Assembly (NCBI GenBank): GCA_015257605.1
Contig: JABZJV010000001.1
Coordinates: forward strand, 1 to 48,256
Reading direction: 5' to 3'
DNA: 48,256 nucleotides
From: Candidatus Nanosynbacter sp.
GTDB taxonomy: Bacteria; Patescibacteriota; Saccharimonadia; Saccharimonadales; Saccharimonadaceae
The notes beneath the pieces were generated by a model. The model was not told the DNA's origin. It saw only the letters and a program-made list of their open reading frames with translations, and searched no databases. This document shows, in pieces, positions 4,702 through 35,943 of the stretch; the first letter of the stretch is position 1; each line of letters opens with the position of its first letter. The translations under genes were made by a program, and so were the position numbers.

Positions 4702-5296
4702 CTTTACCCCTACCAGTGAAGGATGAAAAATCACGATACACAGTACTTCCATCACCAGGTGCACTACCTTTATTTCGGTGAACAAAGCCCTGTTTACGAG
4801 CAATTTTCAAGTCGCCAAGTGTAGGGAATGTTGTCACTTCATTCCATTCGTTTGGCAAGCGACGTTTCGTGACAGCAAAGTCGCTGTCAACACCTCTAAT
4901 AACTACAGCTCTAATTATTTTTATGCCCATACGCCTCGCCAATGTTGTTCGATGCATACCGTCAACAAGCAGTAATCCTTCATGATCATCTTCCTCAATA
5001 ATAGGCGGGAGCATGACTCCGCCCTCCCCATTTTCTTCATCGATAATATCAATTCCACCAGTTCCCATGCACAGTGTATCTTCACCGTACGGCAAAACAA
5101 GCTCTCTTAAACCCTCTTGCTTGCGTACACCAGCGTCAATAACATACCGCTGCGTCGGCTGAAAATCACCTATGCAGACACCCTCAATTGAGATATCACT
5201 ACCAGCGTACGGTCGCACATCTTTATCGGCTAATGTCGGTGTCTGATACAGATTATCAATTAACCACCCTTGAGACTTAAATCCCTCTACTCGCAC
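4688..5296 (-). CDS. Hypothetical protein with ParB/sulfiredoxin-like motif
   Basis: PPII...LLLVDGMHR...IRAVV signature; GTG start overlaps the stop of the lepA C-terminal gene. Confidence 0.55.
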   Translation of the reverse strand: MRVEGFKSQGWLIDNLYQTPTLADKDVRPYAGSDISIEGVCIGDFQPTQRYVIDAGVRKQEGLRELVLPYGEDTLCMGTGGIDIIDEENGEGGVMLPPIIEEDDHEGLLLVDGMHRTTLARRMGIKIIRAVVIRGVDSDFAVTKRRLPNEWNEVTTFPTLGDLKIARKQGFVHRNKGSAPGDGSTVYRDFSSFTGRGKDVRK

Positions 5297-6255
5297 TAAT
5301 CTCTCCTTAGCATTATTGTAAATGCCTCGCTCGGAATGTCAACCTTGCCGAAGCGTTTCATGCGTTTTTTGCCGCGGGCTTGCTTGGCGAGGAGCTTCTT
5401 CTTGCGGCTGACGTCGCCGCCGTACAGATAGCCAGTGACGTCTTTACGGTAGGCACCGATGTTTTCTCGGGCGATAAACCTACCGCCAATCGCCGCCTGC
5501 AACGCCACTTCAAAGCTCTGGCGCGGCACCACCTCTTTGAGCTTTTTGACGATTTCGCGACCCAAGCCTGGCGCCTCAGAGCGGTGACACATCACACTCA
5601 GCGCATCGACCATTTCGCCCGCTACATAAAAATCCACTCGCACCAAATCTTCCGGCTGATAACCCGCTAGCTCATAATTAAACGAGCCGTAGCCACTGGT
5701 TACCGACTTCAGTTGATCATAAAAATCCGTCAACAGATTTGCCAGCGGTGCCGTAAAGGAAATGAGGGCGCGCTCATCGATGTAACTGAGATTTTTCTGC
5801 CGGCCGCGCTTGGCGACAATCAGCTGAATCACCGCACCGATATAATCTTGCGGCACCACAATTTCGCCGTCAATCCACGGCTCGCGAATTTCTTTGATCT
5901 GCGCTGGGTCAGGTAGTTCGCTGGCCGATTTGATATCCAACTCCTCACCGTTGGTCAAACTAACTTGATAATCCGTACTCGGATTGGTGACGATGAGATC
6001 CAGATTATACTCGCGCTCCAGCCGCTCGCGAATGATGTCCATGTGGAGCAAGCCGAGGAAACCAATCCGCACACCATAGCCCAACACCGGCGAATTCTCC
6101 GGCTCAAACTGCAGCGCCGAATCGCTCAGACTCAGCTTCTCGATTGCCTCTTTCAGGTCATTATAATCCTCGTTAGATACCGGAAAGAACCCCGCATAGA
6201 CGAAGGGCTTGACTTCTTTGTAGCCAGGGAGAGGCTGGATGGTGATATGAGACAT
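5296..6255 (-). CDS. lepA: Elongation factor 4 (LepA), C-terminal half (domains III, V, CTD)
   Basis: PLPGYKEVKPFVYAGFFP, GFLGLLHMDIIRERLEREY, GYGSFNYE, RKDVTGYLYGGDVSRKKKLL, GKKRMK; own TATAAT upstream; alternative start 6270. Confidence 0.93.
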   Translation of the reverse strand: MSHITIQPLPGYKEVKPFVYAGFFPVSNEDYNDLKEAIEKLSLSDSALQFEPENSPVLGYGVRIGFLGLLHMDIIRERLEREYNLDLIVTNPSTDYQVSLTNGEELDIKSASELPDPAQIKEIREPWIDGEIVVPQDYIGAVIQLIVAKRGRQKNLSYIDERALISFTAPLANLLTDFYDQLKSVTSGYGSFNYELAGYQPEDLVRVDFYVAGEMVDALSVMCHRSEAPGLGREIVKKLKEVVPRQSFEVALQAAIGGRFIARENIGAYRKDVTGYLYGGDVSRKKKLLAKQARGKKRMKRFGKVDIPSEAFTIMLRRD

Positions 6256-6325
6256 ATTAGTAAAGTGCATTATAACATTTTTGTCCGAAGACGTCGATTA
6301 AGCAACGTATTTTACAAAAACCACG

Positions 6326-12600: not shown

Positions 12601-13674
12601 CTATTTGGTCTCTTTCGTGAAGTACTTTTTCAGCGTTACCGTATCACCCACCCGTGCCTCACGCGTGGTTTTGAGGTTGGTGACGATGTAGCCAATTTCA
12701 CCGGTATCCAGCGACGGGTCGGGGATCATGCCGGGGCTGAGGTGACCGACTTCTAACGCCAAACCATTAGCACCGGTCGCCATCATGTGAATAGCTTCAC
12801 CTTTTTTAATCTGGCCGTCAACCATTCGCACGTACAAAATCACACCACGATAATCATCATAATAACTATCAAAAATCAGCGCCCGTGTTGGGTCATCTGG
12901 CTGACCAATTGGTGCTGGAATTCGTTCAACAATCGTCGCCAAAACTTGATCAACATTCTGCCCGGTTTTAGCAGAAATATGAATAATCTCGCTCTCATCG
13001 CAGCCCAGCAGATTGATCACCTGCTTGGATACTCGCGGCACATCAGCGGCTGGCAAATCAACCTTGTTGAGTACTGGAATAATTGTGAGGTCCTGCTCCA
13101 TCGCCAAGTACACATTCGCCAGCGTCTGCGCCTGAATACCTTGGCTGGCATCAACCACCAACACCGCACCCTCGCAGGCTTGCAAACTACGCGACACCTC
13201 ATAACTAAAATCAACGTGGCCAGGTGTGTCGATAAGGTTGAGGTCGTAGACAGTTGACTGCTCCAGCCCATTCACGCCAACATCTGCACAAGCCCGAGAA
13301 TCAGACTGCGCTAAGCGGGTGGCAGTCGATGGGGTAGCGCCCGCTTCTGAAGAAATCTCCGATTTTTCAGAAGAAGGGGCGGATCGACTGACAGGACCCG
13401 CGTCTAGCGACCGACGTGAAGACTCTGCAAGATTCTTCGACGATGGAAACGGTGATGCGCCACTCGCTTCCGCCTCCTGATATTCATATTTCATCCGCAC
13501 CGGCGCGAGCTTAATAGTGATGCCTTTCTCACGTTCCAAATCCATACTATCCAGCAGCTGCGATTTCATCTCGCGCTTCTCCACCGTCCCCGTCATCTCC
13601 ATCATCCTATCCGCCAGCGTCGATTTGCCGTGATCAATATGAGCGATGATACAAAAATTGCGGATATGTTCCAC
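12601..13674 (-). CDS. lepA: Elongation factor 4 (LepA), N-terminal half (G domain + domain II) with a long in-frame insertion
   Basis: [70 protein letters not shown] then stop. Confidence 0.95.
13297..13436. repeat. Long nested imperfect palindrome inside the lepA coding sequence
   Basis: Arms CGCTA/TAGCG, GCGGGT/ACCCGC, CAGTCGAT/ATCGACTG, CGCCC/GGGCG, CTTCTGAA(G)AAATC/GATTTTTCAGAAG around loop 13358-13360; outer AGAATC/GATTCT. Confidence 0.85.
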
Positions 13675-19898: not shown

Positions 19899-19975
19899 GG
19901 CACTGTAGCTCAGTTGGTTAGAGCGTAGGACTCATAAGCCTAAGGTCACTGGTTCGATCCCAGTCAGTGCTACCA
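19899..19975 (+). tRNA. tRNA-Met (CAT), elongator type
   Basis: GGCACTG/CAGTGCT acceptor, D arm, CTCATAA loop, GTTCGAT T loop, encoded CCA; TGCTATAAT upstream. Confidence 0.9.
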
Positions 19976-22700: not shown

Positions 22701-22730
22701 AAAAAGCCCAACCAAAAGTTGAGCTTTTTT
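22701..22730. terminator. Bidirectional intrinsic terminator (probable original tRNA-fMet terminator)
   Basis: AAAAAGCCCAAC-CAAAA-GTTGAGCTTTTTT; pairs fully on the minus strand with one G-U; abuts attL. Confidence 0.8.
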
Positions 22731-22902
22731 CTTGGTAGCCCAAGTGGCCCTGCATTGGAACCAAATCTGTAATGAGATATTGCAATGGAAGCAGCTCATA
22801 GAGGTACAGTTACTGTCGGAAAGGTAACCGTATCGAATTAGAACTAGGTTTACGACTAGCGACTAAGTTGCCAGAAAAGTTTAAGAAGCATAAACGTATT
22901 CC

Positions 22903-22939
22903 ATGCACAAATATTTTCGTGTATAATAAATTTGTGCAT
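22903..22939 (+). promoter_or_regulatory. Inverted-repeat operator bracketing the -10 box of the ATPase/protease operon
   Basis: ATGCACAAAT (22903-22912) and ATTTGTGCAT (22930-22939) flank TATAAT (22922-22927). Confidence 0.65.
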
Positions 22940-22954
22940 ACAACGAAATTAAAT

Positions 22955-24052
22955 ATGAACTCCGACTTACTTGTTGAGCTAGCCCAGCTGGGGTTAGATG
23001 GTGACAAGAATAAACTAATCAACTACCTAAAAAACCTTGCGGCTCGTAGTGCAGACGAAAGAAAACTAACTCTCTATAAGAAAATATCTGAACTATTAGA
23101 GGATTATGAAAGCAGTAGTAAGGTACAGTGGCAGGTATCAGGTCTGCCAACGGGACAAGTTATCCCTATTCGCGGCGAAGACAAGCTGTGGTTTCCAAAG
23201 CGTCTTGAGGATAGGATTGGTTTGGTTTCTAGACTACTCGCAGACCAAACGCTACCCGAAGATATCAAAGTAAAGTTTAATAGAATACTCCTTCATGGAG
23301 TACCTGGAACTGGCAAGACAACTATCGGCCTTTATCTTGCTAAAAAAATGGGCTACCCAATTAAGTATGTGAAAGTAAGCGACGTCATATCTTATAAGTT
23401 TGGAGAGACGCTAAAGAACATATCAGAAGTCTTTAACGATGGAGGTTCTTCGATAATTTTCATTGACGAGTTTGACGCATTCGCTAAGAGCCGCTTTGAT
23501 TCTAACGATGTTGGCGAGTTGAAACGAATAGTAAACTCACTTATTCAGACACTTGATATGCTACCGAGCAATAAGATTGTTATTGTAGCGACCAATTTAG
23601 TTGAAACCATTGACCCTGCTATTGCACGTCGATTCCCTATCAAAGTTCATGTAGGCAAACTCAATAAGTCGGAGCGTATGGACTTTATCAACTTCCTAGT
23701 AAAACAGTCCTATATACCCATCAAGCTATCAAAGAAAGACCTTGAACTTTTTGATGCCATACTTCGTGAATCCGACCTAAAGACAGTTGATGCAATAAAA
23801 GGTGTCATCGACTCAAGTATCGTGTCTGCCCATGTCGAGAAAGCAGAATCAATTTATATGCAAAATATTGCAATCAGCATGCTGAACAATGGCCTCATAG
23901 ATTCAGACACATTGAAGCGCCTTGGAAGCGAGAAGCCTGATTTATATGCAAAATTGATAAAACTATTTTCGATACAGTACACTAAAACAGATGTTGCTGA
24001 GATTCTTGGTATGCATCGTAACTCATTATTGAACTATGGCAAAGAAATATAA
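22955..24052 (+). CDS. ietA: AAA+ ATPase with C-terminal HTH, IetA-like
   Basis: GVPGTGKT, FIDEFD, R..NDVGELKRIVNSLIQ, ATN...IDPAIARRF; C-terminal TKTDVAEILGMHRNSL; overlaps the S8 protease gene; start ATG 22955. Confidence 0.8.
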   Translation: MNSDLLVELAQLGLDGDKNKLINYLKNLAARSADERKLTLYKKISELLEDYESSSKVQWQVSGLPTGQVIPIRGEDKLWFPKRLEDRIGLVSRLLADQTLPEDIKVKFNRILLHGVPGTGKTTIGLYLAKKMGYPIKYVKVSDVISYKFGETLKNISEVFNDGGSSIIFIDEFDAFAKSRFDSNDVGELKRIVNSLIQTLDMLPSNKIVIVATNLVETIDPAIARRFPIKVHVGKLNKSERMDFINFLVKQSYIPIKLSKKDLELFDAILRESDLKTVDAIKGVIDSSIVSAHVEKAESIYMQNIAISMLNNGLIDSDTLKRLGSEKPDLYAKLIKLFSIQYTKTDVAEILGMHRNSLLNYGKEI

Positions 24053-26315
24053 TCACATCACAATCCCGAAGCAGCTTGTTAATGAATCTGGTGACCACGC
24101 CAATACGCGCAGGGGTCGTAATATTCAAAATATCCCCAAGCTAGAAAATGTAAGTGCTCATAAAGAGCACCTAAGTGAAGGTGTTAATCGTTTAAATGGC
24201 TTCCAAGAGGAAAAGTTGAAGAAAACTGGTGAAATTGTAGAGCAAGTCGATATGAAGATTCGTTTCCGAGGACTTGCTAATGTTGAATTCCTCGACCGAT
24301 ATCACGCAAAAGTGTACCAGCGCTACGATGACAGGCCAGACGAACAGGAATACGCCAACGATGTAGTTGTAGCGAAGATTAGCACAATCCGCCCAGAAGG
24401 AAGGACCACATCTGACTACGAGCATTTTCAGCGTGAATTTGACACCTACTTAAAAACAGGAAAACTAAAATCCTACTTTGACTATGTTGAAGATATTGCA
24501 CCGTTAACTCTTGATGAAATTACAGAACCCGAATTGTATAAAGCAATAAGCGAGGACGAAACGAATAAGCAGCTCGTTGATGTTGTGTTCGGAAGTGGCC
24601 CCCTCACATCAGATAGCGAACTACGAACTTTTAATAGTTTATACAGTGATGACATAGTCGTAGCTGTTGATTCCGTTGACATGCATTACTTCCGAGTTGA
24701 AGCCAGCAAATCTTCACTTGAGGATATGACGGAAGTATTTTCGGGCATAGTAAGTGTAGAGCGTGCTCCATTGGTTGTATTTTCCAGTGGAGAAAGCAAA
24801 GAGGTCGATGAGTATGACATTGATGACAATACAGACACCAACGCAAAGCCTATATTACTTATAGACTCCGCAATCAATGGCGAACATCCAATTCTAAAAA
24901 TTGCTGCCTTAGCACAGCAAGGTGACTCTTCTGGGCGTAAGGACCATGGAACAATGGTGGGCAGTTTAATCGCATGCGGCCCGCACATTAGTGCCAAACG
25001 TCAATTTGCTGTTGAAAATAAAGTTCTACCAATTAATGCATTTATAACAACTCCTCACGGTGTAACAATTAATGAACCGTTAATTGAAGAAGCTCTTAAA
25101 GACAGTTATTCGAAGACCAGGGCAACTATTGCAAACTTCTCTATTAACGGCTATCTATGGCCTATGTACTCGCGCAGAAAAGTAGATAAAATGAGCATTC
25201 TATTCGATGAGTGGGCTCGTAAATATAATGCAGTATTCACTATCGCAACAGGTAACCTATTTCAAGAAAATCATTGGCCGCCAGAAGTAGAGCAAGAGTT
25301 ATTTAGCTTAGGTTATCCTAATTATTTCATGCGAGAAGAGACTTGCATACTCCCACCATCTGACAGTATCAATAATATTGCTGTCGGCTCAGTAGTATAC
25401 GGTGCGACGCCCGACTCAATGGCAGATTCAAAAGACCCTTCACCTATAACACGAAGAGGGTTTTTGAACGCAAAGCACAATTACTCAATTAAGCCTGACG
25501 TGGTGCAATACGACTCAAATTTTGATGTCCAGTTCAACGGTGAAGAAAACGGTCCGTATATGGCGGCCGAAGACGGGAATCTTGTGCGAGCAGCGGGTAC
25601 TAGTTTTGCAGCACCTTTATCTAGTTTTGCACTTGGTATGCTTGCAAAGAAATATCCTTTGTATAACGCCAATACGCTCAAGGCTCTACTTCTTCACTTT
25701 GCCGAAGACTTAGGAACATCAAAGAAAGTTACGAATAATGATATCCTTCATGCTTTAGTCGGAAATGGCATGCCAGATTTAGATAAATCCCTGTATTCGC
25801 TATCGAACTCAACATCACTTGTTATTGAGGATAGTATTCAGATTAACCACAAGAAGAAGATAAGCATCCCAATACCAGCCTCGCTTGCTGGCTCGTCGAG
25901 GCTACGTCTACGCGTAAAGACCACCCTTGTCTACAACCCACCTGTAAATAGCGTCGACATTGCCATGTACAACCCCATAGTAATTGCGGCGAAACTTGTT
26001 CGTTCAGATGGCCAAGACATGAGTAACTTTACGACTACAAAATCAAAAGATGGTGCACACCGTAAATCGAATGTGAAGATTTATGATGAAGTTACAAAGA
26101 GTACAGTTGAGCATATGGGTGAAATGTGGAGCCTAGAAGTTATAGCAGAGCCTTGCTCAAAATATATGACTGATGACATCACACAAGACTATTCAGTCAT
26201 CGTCACCATTGAAGATATGGAGCAAAATGACGATATTGACATACATCAGGAAATCAACCAGATGATTAATGTCGAAGTCGAAAACAGTATTGACGTAACT
26301 GTTGAAGCTAGTTGA
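24036..26315 (+). CDS. ietS: S8 (subtilisin-like) serine protease, IetS-like
   Basis: Triad D (LLIDSAI), H (DHGTMVG), S (GTSFAAP); ATGN, SINNIAVGS, IKPDVV; no signal peptide. Confidence 0.8.
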   Translation: MAKKYNHITIPKQLVNESGDHANTRRGRNIQNIPKLENVSAHKEHLSEGVNRLNGFQEEKLKKTGEIVEQVDMKIRFRGLANVEFLDRYHAKVYQRYDDRPDEQEYANDVVVAKISTIRPEGRTTSDYEHFQREFDTYLKTGKLKSYFDYVEDIAPLTLDEITEPELYKAISEDETNKQLVDVVFGSGPLTSDSELRTFNSLYSDDIVVAVDSVDMHYFRVEASKSSLEDMTEVFSGIVSVERAPLVVFSSGESKEVDEYDIDDNTDTNAKPILLIDSAINGEHPILKIAALAQQGDSSGRKDHGTMVGSLIACGPHISAKRQFAVENKVLPINAFITTPHGVTINEPLIEEALKDSYSKTRATIANFSINGYLWPMYSRRKVDKMSILFDEWARKYNAVFTIATGNLFQENHWPPEVEQELFSLGYPNYFMREETCILPPSDSINNIAVGSVVYGATPDSMADSKDPSPITRRGFLNAKHNYSIKPDVVQYDSNFDVQFNGEENGPYMAAEDGNLVRAAGTSFAAPLSSFALGMLAKKYPLYNANTLKALLLHFAEDLGTSKKVTNNDILHALVGNGMPDLDKSLYSLSNSTSLVIEDSIQINHKKKISIPIPASLAGSSRLRLRVKTTLVYNPPVNSVDIAMYNPIVIAAKLVRSDGQDMSNFTTTKSKDGAHRKSNVKIYDEVTKSTVEHMGEMWSLEVIAEPCSKYMTDDITQDYSVIVTIEDMEQNDDIDIHQEINQMINVEVENSIDVTVEAS

Positions 26316-26409: not shown

Positions 26410-26552
26410 ATACGACCTAATCCGCCCTCGGCGGTATGGTTGTTTGAAAATCCATTAGGAATATAAAGCTCGTCGTCAGAGCACTATTCCTAGTGGTCGG
26501 TACTGGAAACGGTATCGGGTAGCCTTGGCTATCACTGGCGGCGAGCTTTTTA
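26410..26552 (+). ncRNA. Candidate structured RNA (5' hairpin plus four-way junction ending in a U tract)
   Basis: TGATATAAT upstream; closing stem 26465-26479/26535-26549 with G-U pairs enclosing three hairpins; family not recognised. Confidence 0.55.
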
Positions 26553-26594: not shown

Positions 26595-27350
26595 ATGAGT
26601 GCGGCAAAAGACGGCGACACATTATCAGAAATAAGACACGAGTACAAAGCAAAGAAAAAGCAGCTTGAAGAGTACGATACATTTATCGACCGCCACCAAG
26701 GGCTAGTAGTATTCTTGCCTCTGCTACTCGTACTTATTGGCGTACTTGTTCTAGTTGGCATTACAAGTGGCTCGACTGGCGATAATCTGGCAGCAAAAGC
26801 AATAGGCATACTATCTCTTGTACTGTTGGTGGTAGCTATCATAATGGCATTTATAACTGGTGGCCGCAAGTCTACTAAAAGCAAAATAGAAAAGCAGCTT
26901 GAAGCTCTCACGCAAGAGGCAGCAGTATTTCAAAAGCAGGCCAAAGACCACGATAATATTACCAGAGATGAGCTAGGTTTATGGCGTGATATTGAGCAAG
27001 ATACGAGCGGTAATCATTCAAATAAAGGCGGCTGGGTGATGGGAATTATCGTCATTGTCGTTGTTGCAGCAGTCATATCTATCAATCAAGCAAATCAGAG
27101 GAACCAAGAAGCAGCCGAACGAGCTAGGCAAACGCAAATTATGGAACAGCAGCGAGCAAAACAAGAGCAAGACGCAATCGAGCAGCGAAAACTTGACCAG
27201 CAGGACGAGGCGAACCGCTTACAGCAGCAACAAAACGCCATTGACCTATACAACAGCACCAAGCCCTCGAACAACAATAACTATCGTTCTAGTACGAACT
27301 GCTCCACCAGCTACTATGGTGGATATACAGCATATACGACTTGCGACTAA
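26595..27350 (+). CDS. Membrane protein (3 TM) with Gln-rich coiled coil and Cys-bracketed C-terminal tail
   Basis: Hydrophobic segments; GGAG SD; ends NCSTSYYGGYTAYTTCD. Confidence 0.75.
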   Translation: MSAAKDGDTLSEIRHEYKAKKKQLEEYDTFIDRHQGLVVFLPLLLVLIGVLVLVGITSGSTGDNLAAKAIGILSLVLLVVAIIMAFITGGRKSTKSKIEKQLEALTQEAAVFQKQAKDHDNITRDELGLWRDIEQDTSGNHSNKGGWVMGIIVIVVVAAVISINQANQRNQEAAERARQTQIMEQQRAKQEQDAIEQRKLDQQDEANRLQQQQNAIDLYNSTKPSNNNNYRSSTNCSTSYYGGYTAYTTCD

Positions 27351-27640
27351 TCACGTCTACGAAGCAAGACGTGATAACAGGGGCGGGTATCCACGAAGCA
27401 AGATACCTCACCTGCTACGAAGCAAGCAGGTGGAGGCTGTCTAATCCTAGTCGTTTTTCAGGGGTAGCAATTTATAAACGATGTAAATCATACATCAATA
27501 CTTAACAGAGGAAAAACTATCCTCAAAGCAAGATAGATAACCCCTATTTTTACATCTACGAAGCAAGATGTAAGATACGGCCGTCACCGTCTACGAAGCA
27601 AGACGGTAAAACGCCCTCCGCCTATTACGAAGCAAGTACG
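27350..27640 (+). repeat. Array of seven hairpins with a conserved ACGAAGCA loop and different stems
   Basis: ACGAAGCAAG at 27359, 27393, 27417, 27558, 27593, 27627 and variant TCAAAGCAAG at 27523, each flanked by its own inverted repeat. Confidence 0.92.
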
Positions 27641-27711
27641 CACGTTCAGTATAATAGAACGTACTATGTCTGACGAAACCAATCGAGCAAAAGCACTTCA
27701 AGAATGTATTT

Positions 27712-28191
27712 ATGGGCATTTATGAGCTGCTAAAACGCGTCGAGGGCGATGATAAAAATGCTCGCAAAGTGTACGCCTGTGCTGATGAGATAAGCGAGGT
27801 ATTCAAAATAAGCAAAGAAAACGCCCTACGGTTATTACTTACAGCTAAGGCTCCCACGGCGTACGGTATGAGATACGCTCCACATATCAAGCAGGACGGC
27901 GATGAGGTTGTAATGCGATTCGGTCACAAAACAACACTGGCGGATATTAAAGCCGTTTGGAAAATAGTAAAAGATGTACAGCGAGAGATTGGCGGTACTG
28001 GTAGTAAGCAGTCTATAAATCCAGAGTTGGCGTTTTGTATATATCGCCAATATATACTCAACGGAAGAAGGATGGCGGATATATTCAAGGACTACTCCCA
28101 CAAAAGACTTGAGGGCTATGAGGGTAAATCGCCTACGATGAGTGAAAATGACTTTAGGAAATATTATCTCAACATTGTCGATGGGCTATAA
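27712..28191 (+). CDS. Hypothetical protein (5' end possibly damaged)
   Basis: 159-aa ORF; an out-of-frame ATG at 27666 follows a TATAAT, so the true N-terminus may be frameshifted. Confidence 0.6.
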   Translation: MGIYELLKRVEGDDKNARKVYACADEISEVFKISKENALRLLLTAKAPTAYGMRYAPHIKQDGDEVVMRFGHKTTLADIKAVWKIVKDVQREIGGTGSKQSINPELAFCIYRQYILNGRRMADIFKDYSHKRLEGYEGKSPTMSENDFRKYYLNIVDGL

Positions 28192-28245
28192 ATAGCCTAA
28201 ATATACCCCAGAGATTTTAGGCTCTTGCAAACATACCATAGAAAT

Positions 28246-28464
28246 ATGGTTAATAAGCTGCGTTCAGACGACAATAGTCCTGCAAAAACAGGCTCACTTG
28301 TCGTCAGCGTTCAGAAAGCCCGCAGGATATTAGGAACTCTCGCAAATTCTATGAGCGATGACCAAGTCAAAGACCTTATTTACTCTCTACATCTGTTAGC
28401 AAAAGAGCAATTAGTGTATACTGGTTCCAAACATGACACAACGGAATCAATTACGAACCTCTAA
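28246..28464 (+). CDS. Small helical protein upstream of the recombinase (possible regulator or directionality factor)
   Basis: VSVQKARRILG..MSDDQVKDLI; overlaps the recombinase start; function is inference. Confidence 0.55.
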   Translation: MVNKLRSDDNSPAKTGSLVVSVQKARRILGTLANSMSDDQVKDLIYSLHLLAKEQLVYTGSKHDTTESITNL

Positions 28465-30031
28465 TGACAAGCGTGCTCTCGCATATATTCGCATATCTAG
28501 CCAACGTCAGGTAAACGGCGAAAGCCCTGAAACTCAACTGCAAGCAATAAACAACTTTGCAGCCAACAATTACATCGAGATTGCTAAAACATTCTATGAC
28601 GAGGCTAAAAGTGGCAAGAATACAGACCGCCCCGCACTTAAAGAGCTACTCAAATATGCCGAAAATCACAAAGACGATATTGACCACGTAATCGTCTACA
28701 AAATGAACAGAGCTTCTCGTAATATGACTAGCTACGTGACAGGGTTTCTGCTACCCCTAAAGCGGCTCGGTATATCAATACGCTCCGCAACCGAGCCAAC
28801 CGACGACAGTGTGCATGGGCAGTTTATGGAAATGCTCAACGTGCTGCTTGGCTAGATGGATAATGAAACAAAACGCGCTTTCACTGTAGATAATATGACC
28901 AACCTATCCCTACAGGGCTGGTGGCAAGCCCCAGCAATGGTTGGATATGATGTCTACAAGATACCTAACGAGGTTGGCAAGCTACGGCCAACCCTCAAGC
29001 CAAACAATATGGCTCCACTCGTCAGACAAGTACTGGAACGGTTTTCGGAGGGTAATATTACCAAAGCGGAGCTAACACGCTACGCCGCTTCTATAGGCTT
29101 ACGTAGTCGTTATGGCAAGAAACTGAGTGAAGACCGTATACATGCAATGATAAAGCACGCTATATATGCTGGGTACGTCGCAAACAAGCAGACAGGCTGG
29201 GAGCTGGTAGACGGCAAGCACAAGGCTATTATCTCTCGTGATACATACGAAATTAACCAGAGGCTATTATATAGCAAGCGTAAAAGAGCTGGCGAGGTTC
29301 GCCAAAAGTTTAATCCCGACTATCCACTAAAAGGCTTGGTGCTATGTCCCAATTGTATGAAACCTCTATATGCGTCGGCTCCAAAAACTAGTGCAGGTGG
29401 CAAATCACCTCGCTATCATTGCTCTCGCACTCAGTGTAAAGGCAAATATAAACCAATCAAAGCCGATATAATGCACGATGATTTTGAGAAAATGCTACAA
29501 CGTATCAAGCCAGATGACAGGCTCTTGGCTCTGTATAAAGAGGTATTAGTCACGGAAGCCGCAAACCAACTCGGCAACCTTAACAGCAAGATTAGCAAGG
29601 CTCGCAGGCAACTTGATACTATCGCAGAAAATCGCCTTAATGCTATCAAAAAGTTCAATGCCGACCAACTGATCGTCGATGAAAAGATAGAGTTAGTAAA
29701 CGCATACGATGACGATAAGGCCGTAATCACCGACGAGCTACGCCATCTGGAACGCCAGCAAACAATCCGAGAAACAGATATTGATATTGCTCTTGAGATT
29801 ATGCGAGATGTAGACAGGCAGTGGCTACTTGCGTCGCCAAGTGCTAGAGTGAGGTTCCAAAGCATATTATTCCCACAGGGGTTGGTTTACGACTACGAGA
29901 ACCATAGGTTTGGAACCAGTCAGATTAGTGCATTTTACAGAGTGCTACCAACTAAAAAAGACTCCGAAGAGGCTTCGAAATCTTTCTTGGTAGCGGGGGC
30001 TGGATTTGAACCAGCGACCTCTTGGTTATGA
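28433..30031 (+). pseudogene. Large serine recombinase interrupted by an in-frame TAG (28853-28855)
   Basis: YIRISS nucleophile motif, SGKNTDRPAL, YKMNRASR; recombinase domain (APAMVGY, GKHKAIIS); zinc ribbon CPNC...YHC...C; coiled coil; reads through attR into the tRNA antisense. Confidence 0.9.
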
Positions 30032-30065
30032 GCCAAGCGAGCTGACCAGGCTGCTCCACCCCGCG
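29988..30065 (-). tRNA. Initiator tRNA-fMet (CAT)
   Basis: CGCGGGGTGGAGCAGCCTGGTCAGCTCG...CTCATAA...GTTCAAATCC...CCCCGCTACCA; unpaired C1:U72. Confidence 0.92.
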
Positions 30066-35867: not shown

Positions 35868-35943
35868 GGGGGCGTAGCTCAGGGGTTAGAGCAGCGGGCT
35901 CATAACCTGTTGGTCGTTGGTTCGATCCCAACCGCCCCCACCA
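35868..35943 (+). tRNA. tRNA with CAT anticodon, probably tRNA-Ile2 (lysidine)
   Basis: GGGGGCG/CGCCCCC acceptor, CTCATAA loop, A73, CCA; the other two CAT tRNAs fit fMet and elongator Met; TATAAT upstream. Confidence 0.85.

Follow-up and report, generated by a model that had tools for sequence, protein, structure and literature searches.

Hairpin arrays of a Saccharibacteria integrative element resemble multiplied copies of a unit found at the start of phage small-terminase genes

We analyzed 48,256 nucleotides of DNA from Candidatus Nanosynbacter sp. (GenBank assembly GCA_015257605.1, contig JABZJV010000001.1, positions 1 to 48,256 of the forward strand; the whole stretch is referred to here as the window). 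The contig belongs to a genome assembly of about 0.7 Mb (696 kb) that is 75% complete. Upstream of a gene of the ORF201 family and a large serine recombinase gene, the window carries an array of seven hairpins with a constant loop, and comparison with related loci showed that, at the level of sequence and predicted pairing, this array is a multimer of a cis element from the start of phage small-terminase genes (terS). The underlying unit of approximately 34 nt comprises, in order, AACAGRGG, one arm of a variable stem, the ACRAAGCA loop with its CT..AG closing pairs, and the other, complementary arm; it occurs once, at the terS start, in a group of Saccharibacteria (TM7) phages and terS-carrying integrative elements. 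The interpretation that we favor, tentatively and with somewhat less than even confidence, is that the surrounding element is a mini-satellite without terS, and that its array provides multiple copies of the terS-start recognition hairpin of a helper phage, as a packaging signal or a decoy.

The first-pass annotation of this DNA had described seven hairpins with a constant loop, and all seven were recovered where it had placed them, with the same distances of 34, 24, 106, 35, 35, and 34 nt between successive loop starts. The array and its associated motifs are as follows.

27350..27638, + strand: array of seven hairpins (h1 to h7), with stems that all differ (4-9 bp) and a constant 8-nt loop
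27350-58/27367-75, + strand: h1 stem
27376..27383, + strand: AACAGGGG box preceding h2, part of the ~34-nt unit common to phage terS 5' ends
27386-91/27402-07, + strand: h2 stem
27409-16/27425-32, + strand: h3 stem
27480..27496, + strand: central GATGT..ACATC inverted repeat, in which the arms are conserved and the center varies
27504-27511, + strand: AACAGAGG box preceding h4, a second copy of the AACAGGGG-type box
27517-21/27532-36, + strand: h4 stem, loop TCAAAGCA
27550-57/27566-73, + strand: h5 stem
27586-92/27601-07, + strand: h6 stem
27623-26/27635-38, + strand: h7 stem, including one T.G pair
27650..27655, + strand: TATAAT, conserved among window-type arrays

The loop is ACGAAGCA in six of the window's hairpins and TCAAAGCA in h4, giving the consensus [A/T]C[G/A]AAGCA with CT..AG closing pairs. 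Six copies of the 10-mer ACGAAGCAAG are present in the window, every one on the + strand and within the array (expectation, 0.20; none of 100 shuffles reached six), and the one further copy in the rest of the 696-kb assembly does not form a hairpin. The GATGT..ACATC repeat follows a run of five or six T residues in an 80-nt middle segment free of hairpins. A 321-nt stretch containing the array folds better than shuffled sequences on the + strand (z, -6.4) and on the - strand (z, -5.4), and the individual hairpins fold as DNA on either strand. When positions 27200 to 27800 were scanned against Rfam, the best and sole match was CyVA-1, at 13.7 bits and an E value of 6.4 (gathering score, 41.4), in agreement with the earlier suggestion that the motif falls outside described families.

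Pattern scans and protein searches yielded seven homologous arrays on other Saccharibacteria contigs, so that eight were compared: that of the window and those of L110 (the same as L219), L172, L177, L179, L182 (the same as L189), L209, and L218 (within L234). Seven of the eight are built to one plan, in which three hairpins are followed by a middle segment of about 80 nt, three or four further hairpins, TATAAT, and the ATG of ORF201; the middle segment holds the T run, the GATGT..ACATC inverted repeat, and the AACAGAGG box. The exception is L177, which has three hairpins and no middle segment. Repeats are spaced by 24 and 34-36 bp. In seven loci h1 begins 0-8 nt past the stop codon of the upstream gene, which belongs to either of two unrelated families, and in L209 a degenerate first motif occupies this place. 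TATAAT lies 12-13 nt beyond the last loop motif in the seven window-type arrays, while L177 has ATAATA after 17 nt. In the six arrays that reach the ORF201 start codon, the distance from TATAAT to the ATG is 10-11 nt, a near-leaderless arrangement; the contig of L179 stops just beyond TATAAT. As a separate observation, h5 lies inside a promoter-like pair, TTTACA-16 nt-TAAGAT (window 27549-27576, + strand), and a -10-like T(A/G)A(A/G)AT follows the hairpin at the h5 position in five arrays (window, L172, L182, L209, and L218); a transcript initiating at this pair would have hairpin 6 first.

The stems of these arrays vary and remain complementary. When 46 hairpins from the eight loci were aligned on their loops, 85.6% of stem positions were paired versus 61.1% in shuffled controls, which leave sequence relatedness in, and the covariation score was 0.606 versus 0.182, with none of 500 shuffles as high. 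Controls in which the alignment was slid gave 28-48% pairing. RNAalifold, applied to seven arrays, reported 61 pairs, 17 of which showed a two-sided change that kept the pairing in at least one sequence, and compensatory changes were seen between orthologous hairpins (for example, CACCTGCT/AGCAGGTG versus CGCCTGCT/AGCAGGCG). The core conserved across arrays is the loop plus the two closing pairs CT..AG, and the loops overall read [A/T]C[G/A/C]AAGCA. On this comparative evidence, selection is acting on hairpin structure with a constant loop, as the first-pass annotation had proposed from the paired but divergent stems; the homologous arrays have kept both loop and stem complementarity and are not plain double-stranded DNA iterons that have lost their pairing. 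Other parts of that proposal fared less well. Since the third loop position can be G, A, or C, a strict C-GAA-G mini-hairpin is disfavored. The pairings GGGCG/CGCCC and AGGGGT/ACCCCT, which had been thought to close domains, were not recovered as conserved helices: RNAalifold found local hairpins only, with zero conserved long-range helices in the seven arrays. Nor was the supposed G-U bias toward the + strand significant, as non-Watson-Crick pairs across loci comprised 3 G.T versus 4 A.C inside stems and 14 versus 8 at stem ends.

The genomes of relatives range from 0.4 to 2.2 Mb, most of them below 1.3 Mb. A strict two-unit pattern matched the window's own genome alone among 401 genomes sampled at class level. 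A two-copy 8-mer pattern matched 17 of 101 related genomes, and by eye these matches were other, mostly conserved sequences and included no hairpin arrays. The pattern scan of genome contigs returned at least 120 loci; among those listed, L110 was the sole array of the window kind, and L053, L063, and L105 proved to be unrelated repeats. From metagenome contigs 48 loci were obtained, 28 of them with at least two hairpin-like matches. Many of these belonged to a second class of repeat with identical GGGTCT..AGACCC stems around the loop ACAAAGCA, in two to three tandem copies on contigs of about 63% G+C (L167-L169, L186, L187, L193, L196, L197, L200, L201, L204, L206, and L207). No ORF201, X (the gene described below), or serine recombinase gene was found within 4 kb of the second-class loci, and the class was set aside as unrelated.

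The link to phages came from the distant relatives of ORF201. The two protein families concerned number about 90 ORF201 and about 220 X proteins. The distant homologs of ORF201 (28-40% identity) lack an array and are preceded by an extra gene, X, which encodes 148-164 aa and contains a single hairpin about 33 nt past its ATG (TACCGCT, loop ACAAAGCA, AGCGGTA). In 119 of 120 X proteins the place of the hairpin reads xxT[KNR][QL]xx, and complementary codons flank this motif in 20 of its 31 types versus 11.2 expected, with none of 2000 shuffles as high. This complementarity of the flanking codons argues that the hairpin, rather than the peptide, is what is conserved in X.

Homologs of X were present in 50 viral contigs, two of which (L236 and L237) are of the recombinase type; gene neighborhoods were covered for 30 of the 50. 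In L235 (genome G728; 40,094 bp, 100% complete), the gene order is HNH endonuclease, a 193-aa open reading frame (ORF), X, large terminase (TerL), and portal. With tblastn, TerL was detected after X in 14 of the 50 viral loci, and Pfam placed it there in 13 of 14 others; the GenBank TM7 phage MG269973 has HNH, X, and an annotated terminase large subunit, in that order. Its location directly upstream of the large terminase identifies X, by position, as the small terminase. X had no match in Pfam, PHROG, or PADLOC, and its matches in BFVD were to uncharacterized phage proteins (E value, 2e-7) and, weakly, to DUF5681. No gene X was found in the window's own, 75% complete genome. We also observed that the HNH endonuclease gene adjoins the gene at the terS position in phages (L235, 3868-4200; L290, 3124-3399); an HNH gene beside terS is associated with HK97-like packaging of the cos type.

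The 46 array hairpins were used to build a covariance model (R1, whose E values are rough), a tool that the first-pass annotation had recommended, and the model was run on the viral loci. It found a hairpin at the 5' end or in the 5' untranslated region (UTR) of X in 12 of the 50, invariably on the X strand; 17 of 19 R1 matches in total lay at the 5' end of X. The phage hairpin sits inside the X coding sequence in some loci and in the 5' UTR, a few nucleotides before the ATG, in others. In L235 the phage unit is AACAGGGGTAGAGC followed by stem, loop, and stem, and when it was compared with the second hairpin unit of the L182 array, 6 of 34 positions differed, corresponding to exactly three compensatory stem pairs. 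The G728 genome has one exact loop motif with CT..AG closing pairs, located inside terS, and its sole site with one mismatch is not a hairpin. The end classes given by IMG/VR, direct terminal repeats, do not locate the cut site.

The array is part of an integrated element whose genes lie on the + strand in the order IetA, IetS, LOOT RNA, 251-aa membrane protein, array, TATAAT, ORF201-family ORF, 79-aa ORF, and large serine recombinase.

22728..22739 and 29983-29994, + strand: 12-bp direct repeat TTTCTTGGTAGC, the second copy adjoining the 3' end of tRNA-Met
22868-24052, + strand: IetA, defense gene (PADLOC)
24036-26315, + strand: IetS, defense gene (PADLOC)
26414..26533, + strand: LOOT RNA (Rfam RF03000, 65 bits)
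26595..27350, + strand: membrane protein, 251 aa, the stop codon of which abuts h1
27666..28191, + strand: ORF201-family gene, with an MSDET start at 27666 and an open remnant at 27712-28191
28225..28464, + strand: small ORF, 79 aa, with a conserved position between ORF201 and the recombinase
28433..30031, + strand: large serine recombinase (Resolvase, Recombinase, and Zn_ribbon_recom), with an in-frame TAG at 28853-28855
29988..30065, - strand: tRNA-Met(CAT), the 3' end of which overlaps the end of the recombinase gene

The earlier suspicion that the motif is tied to a recombinase-bearing element was borne out: the array is followed by ORF201 and then the large serine recombinase in six loci (window, L110, L172, L177, L182, and L234), and L209 and L179 end earlier. 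An ORF of 70-80 aa separates ORF201 from the recombinase in five of the six, none being called in L110; judged from its position, the 79-aa ORF may be a recombination directionality factor. The overlap between the recombinase end and the tRNA-Met 3' end marks the integration site, and the recombinase overlaps a tRNA in all five loci checked (window, L110, L172, L182, and L234). Three tRNA genes with anticodon CAT lie inside 16 kb of the window (19899-19975, 29988-30065, which is the integration site, and 35868-35943). At the other side, the TTTCTTGGTAGC copy at 22728, which follows a pyridine-nucleotide oxidoreductase gene, is tentatively attL, giving an element of 7.3 kb that includes IetAS; the chance of such a repeat match is roughly estimated at about 0.09. 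In G601 a related element adjoins a homologous oxidoreductase gene. Attachment-site repeats sought by exact words in L110, L182, and L234 were not found. The elements measure about 4.2-7.3 kb (L234, about 4.2 kb from LOOT to tRNA) versus 38-40 kb for the phages, and a Pfam scan of those examined detected no capsid, portal, or tail family and no virion genes.

If the left end is the repeat at 22728, IetA and IetS are probably cargo. The first-pass annotation had named IetA as a possible partner of the hairpins, an idea that its distribution does not sustain: IetA and IetS were found only in the window, and by Pfam five other arrays (L110, L172, L177, L182, and L209) have other upstream genes. 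Cargo elsewhere comprises, in L182, a HEPN protein of the ApeA type and, in others, AAA_15/AbiEii-like or HEPN proteins, and the 251-aa membrane protein is kept in L179 and L182, another gene taking its place in the remaining loci. LOOT RNA was present in three of six sources scanned, namely the window, L182 (3042-3162, + strand), and L234 (11694-11811, - strand), in each case upstream of the genes preceding the array and co-oriented with the element; it could be an additional part of the element or a marker of its left end. The main text of PMC5737381, in the portion available, does not discuss LOOT.

Intact ORF201 homologs are 201 aa long and start with MSDET. The ORF at 27712, once put forward as a candidate hairpin-binding protein, is a truncated remnant of such a gene. 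Homologs of the proteins encoded around the array are labeled Saccharibacteria or Nanosynbacter in their source records, and a P0039-type protein from an oral Nanosynbacter lineage was encountered on 178 contigs. In the window's element, the ORF201 gene has lost approximately 27 codons and acquired a frameshift, and the recombinase has an in-frame TAG, while the seven hairpins are intact; because two of the three core genes are broken, this copy is probably no longer mobile. An ORF201 gene directly follows the array in seven of eight window-type loci, the eighth being L179 with its contig end. The family is rare, with members in 6 of 401 genomes at class level and 10 of 401 at the level of the taxonomic family, and had no sequence match in Pfam, PHROG, PADLOC, or PDB. 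Foldseek returned nothing at an E value of 0.001 or better, and the protein atlas gave unnamed clusters only. An AlphaFold model (pLDDT, 82.5) predicted a C-terminal helix-turn-helix (HTH), for which the best fold match (Z, 5.3) was a small-terminase HTH, tied with DeoR/SorC and sigma region 4; these matches, at Z scores of 5.3 or less, are of a generic HTH. The model may also contain a winged helix in the middle of the protein. A direct scan of viral contigs detected no ORF201 homolog, and the family was missing from all three complete phages checked, so the hairpin is independent of ORF201. Two ORF201 lineages, L220 and L221, have an altered loop and no array.

How might these observations fit together? 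The elements combine a recombinase, a tRNA attachment site, and defense cargo with an absence of virion genes. In phages P22, SPP1, and P1, pac sites lie inside terS, and P4 and cos-type staphylococcal pathogenicity islands (SaPIs; SaPIbov5) carry the packaging (cos) sites of their helpers. In the interpretation that we favor, a helper-phage factor would read the loop and closing pairs; since the hairpin travels in cis with the terS gene everywhere else, the small terminase would be the most economical and likeliest reader. The terS-start hairpin would be the place where the packaging target is recognized, perhaps as extruded DNA rather than as RNA. Having lost terS, or never having had it, the presumably helper-dependent element would use seven copies to gain a multivalent hold on the packaging machinery of its helper and possibly also to titrate it, so that either the element would be packaged at the expense of the helper or the factor would be soaked up. 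The first-pass annotation had listed a packaging signal among several options; now that the unit has proved homologous to phage small-terminase genes at their 5' end, it is the leading one, and the role in packaging itself is put forward from that homology.

Several points weigh against this interpretation. Known small terminases read double-stranded DNA, we know of no hairpin-type pac or cos site, and co-varying stems are more typical of RNA. The fold match between X and solved small terminases is weak (Z, 3.3-3.6; NV1 terS, Z 3.3). Nothing corresponding to the middle segment of the array was found near terS in phage loci, and no replication module or helper phage was identified for the element. 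Some phages have a poor terS hairpin (L241 and L242, motif without a stem; L250-253, 4 bp) and others none (L239, L240, L243, L246, and the GenBank TM7 phage); with several phages lacking a good one, the hairpin cannot be essential for all. The last hairpin stands at a fixed distance from the ORF201 promoter, which hints at a regulatory role. Finally, in phages with a recognizable -10 box the hairpin is downstream of it and would be transcribed, which fits a role in RNA equally well.

That role is the strongest alternative, possible in our view and on balance unlikely: the hairpin would be read in the transcript, either as a boxB/nut-like target of an antiterminator or as a translational operator, and would stand at the 5' end of the late (terS) message in phages. 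Read-through from the upstream gene would bring the seven copies of the satellite into a transcript, where they could tie ORF201, small ORF, and recombinase expression to a helper factor or soak up that factor as an RNA sponge. A constant loop, conserved closing pairs, and co-varying stems are the classic marks of RNA hairpins that bind proteins. Every copy is co-oriented with transcription, and the hairpin of phages and X-type elements follows the -10 box, sitting either in the 5' UTR or no more than 60 nt into the coding sequence, in any frame. In seven loci h1 begins 0-8 nt past the upstream stop codon, and no + strand terminator was predicted from there to ORF201. Weaker support comes from two metatranscriptome libraries, in which contigs similar to the window (85-95%) cover the array at a depth like that of its flanks, with DNA carry-over possible; the sequencing-run evidence consists of contigs over small shares of the window, without strand or end information. 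Against these points, the hairpins of window-type arrays lie upstream of the sole conserved promoter, G.U pairs show no clear excess over A.C pairs, no candidate RNA-binding reader was identified, and neither an Rfam family match nor, by RNAalifold, long-range RNA structure was found. The RNA-level reading nevertheless ranks close behind that of a packaging signal or decoy, because known terminases read duplex DNA, the stems co-vary, several phages lack a good hairpin, and in phages with a clear -10 box the hairpin would be transcribed.

Improbable, in our estimation, is an operator array to which ORF201, as an HTH protein of 201 aa, would bind to control its own promoter and the excision genes, with the phage terS hairpin as a target of interference. 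The immediate succession of array and ORF201 would suit such an operator, as would the predicted C-terminal HTH and possible winged helix, and distant ORF201 homologs retain one hairpin nearby. The last loop motif ends 12-13 nt before TATAAT and thus overlaps the -35 position. The hairpin is, however, present in phages without ORF201 (none of the three complete phages has it), variable yet complementary arms are unexpected in a double-stranded operator, and lineages L220 and L221 have ORF201 with a changed loop and no array. Least likely, and very doubtful, is a replication origin or single-strand initiation site with the neighboring protein as initiator, in the manner of iteron plasmids or island origins. 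Such a site fits the two-cluster layout (three repeats, an 80-nt A+T-rich segment, and four repeats), the adjacent gene for a protein with two helix-turn-helix-like domains, and the need of an element packaged as concatemers, as satellites of the PICMI type are (PMC10803314), to replicate, but nothing else. Searches of Pfam, PHROGs, and PDB linked ORF201 to no Rep family, the 24- and 34-36-bp spacings are not helically phased, L177 has three repeats and no middle segment, and an origin would not explain why the unit is homologous to the start of terS.

Returning to the mini-satellite reading, the closest parallel is with PICMIs, which, according to the portion of PMC10803314 available, are about 6 kb long, have three core proteins, and are packaged as concatemers, no packaging site being identified there. 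The present elements share with such satellites their small size (4-7 kb versus phages of about 40 kb), an integrase with few core genes, the absence of capsid genes, and defense cargo. They differ in their Saccharibacteria host, a member of the candidate phyla radiation (CPR), in having a large serine recombinase at a tRNA, and in a putative signal that is a 6-7-fold hairpin array with co-varying stems; their dependence on a helper is likewise proposed. With regard to the possession of a terS or a helper signal, the distant elements carry X, and the window type has only the multiplied terS-start hairpin, with its suggested role in packaging. The pac and cos sites of P22, SPP1, P1, and lambda (cosB) are similar in being unique cis sites at the start of the small-terminase gene, as is the single exact motif inside terS of G728; in SPP1 and lambda, terS binds to several boxes. 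Such pac and cos sites are recognized as duplex DNA and have no stem covariation; in the unit described here, the stems vary while remaining paired.

Resemblances to RNA systems are more limited. Like lambda N/boxB (nut), the unit is a short hairpin in which loop and closing pairs are constant and the stem varies, located near the 5' end of a phage transcript; its loop, however, has 8 nt and another sequence, no boxA or N-like protein was identified, and we know of no nut sites in array form. CsrB/RsmZ sponges likewise present one loop motif on many tandem hairpins, an analogy drawn by the first-pass annotation that is formal only, since the loops here contain no GGA and the unit derives from a phage gene start. 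Reading of a hairpin as DNA has a precedent in the promoters of phage N4, which are DNA hairpins extruded from the duplex and recognized loop and stem specifically by a phage protein; N4 hairpins differ in having 3-nt loops and a giant RNA polymerase, for which there is no gene here.

Elsewhere in the window, lepA appears to be split into a GTPase half (5296-6270, - strand) and a LepA_C half (12601-13674, - strand), about 6.3 kb apart. The intervening insert looks like a mobile element, as it carries DUF6994, several ORFs without assignment, and a T5orf172 (GIY-YIG-like) protein.

We found no published description of such an element, or of any phage satellite, in Saccharibacteria, in a search below full-text level. 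Saccharibacteria are epibionts with genomes of approximately 1 Mb, for which few characterized mobile elements or phages exist. What we describe is best viewed as a candidate satellite with a helper-derived recognition signal, and it would be categorically new if the packaging machinery reads the hairpin as a folded strand. The fuller scenario, in which packaging or late-gene machinery reads the loop as a folded single strand and satellites without terS carry six or seven hairpins as a multivalent trap that secures packaging and blunts the helper, as the first satellite family of the CPR, is one that we consider rather doubtful. Were it true, we would know of no earlier case of a terminase-gene start signal that is recognized via a hairpin and naturally multimerized in a phage parasite, and it would offer a first handle on conflicts between phage, satellite, and host in Saccharibacteria. 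The analysis also gives the orphan LOOT RNA a genomic context, and the array, serine integrase, and tRNA attachment site form a compact module for genetic work in this phylum, which is difficult to manipulate.

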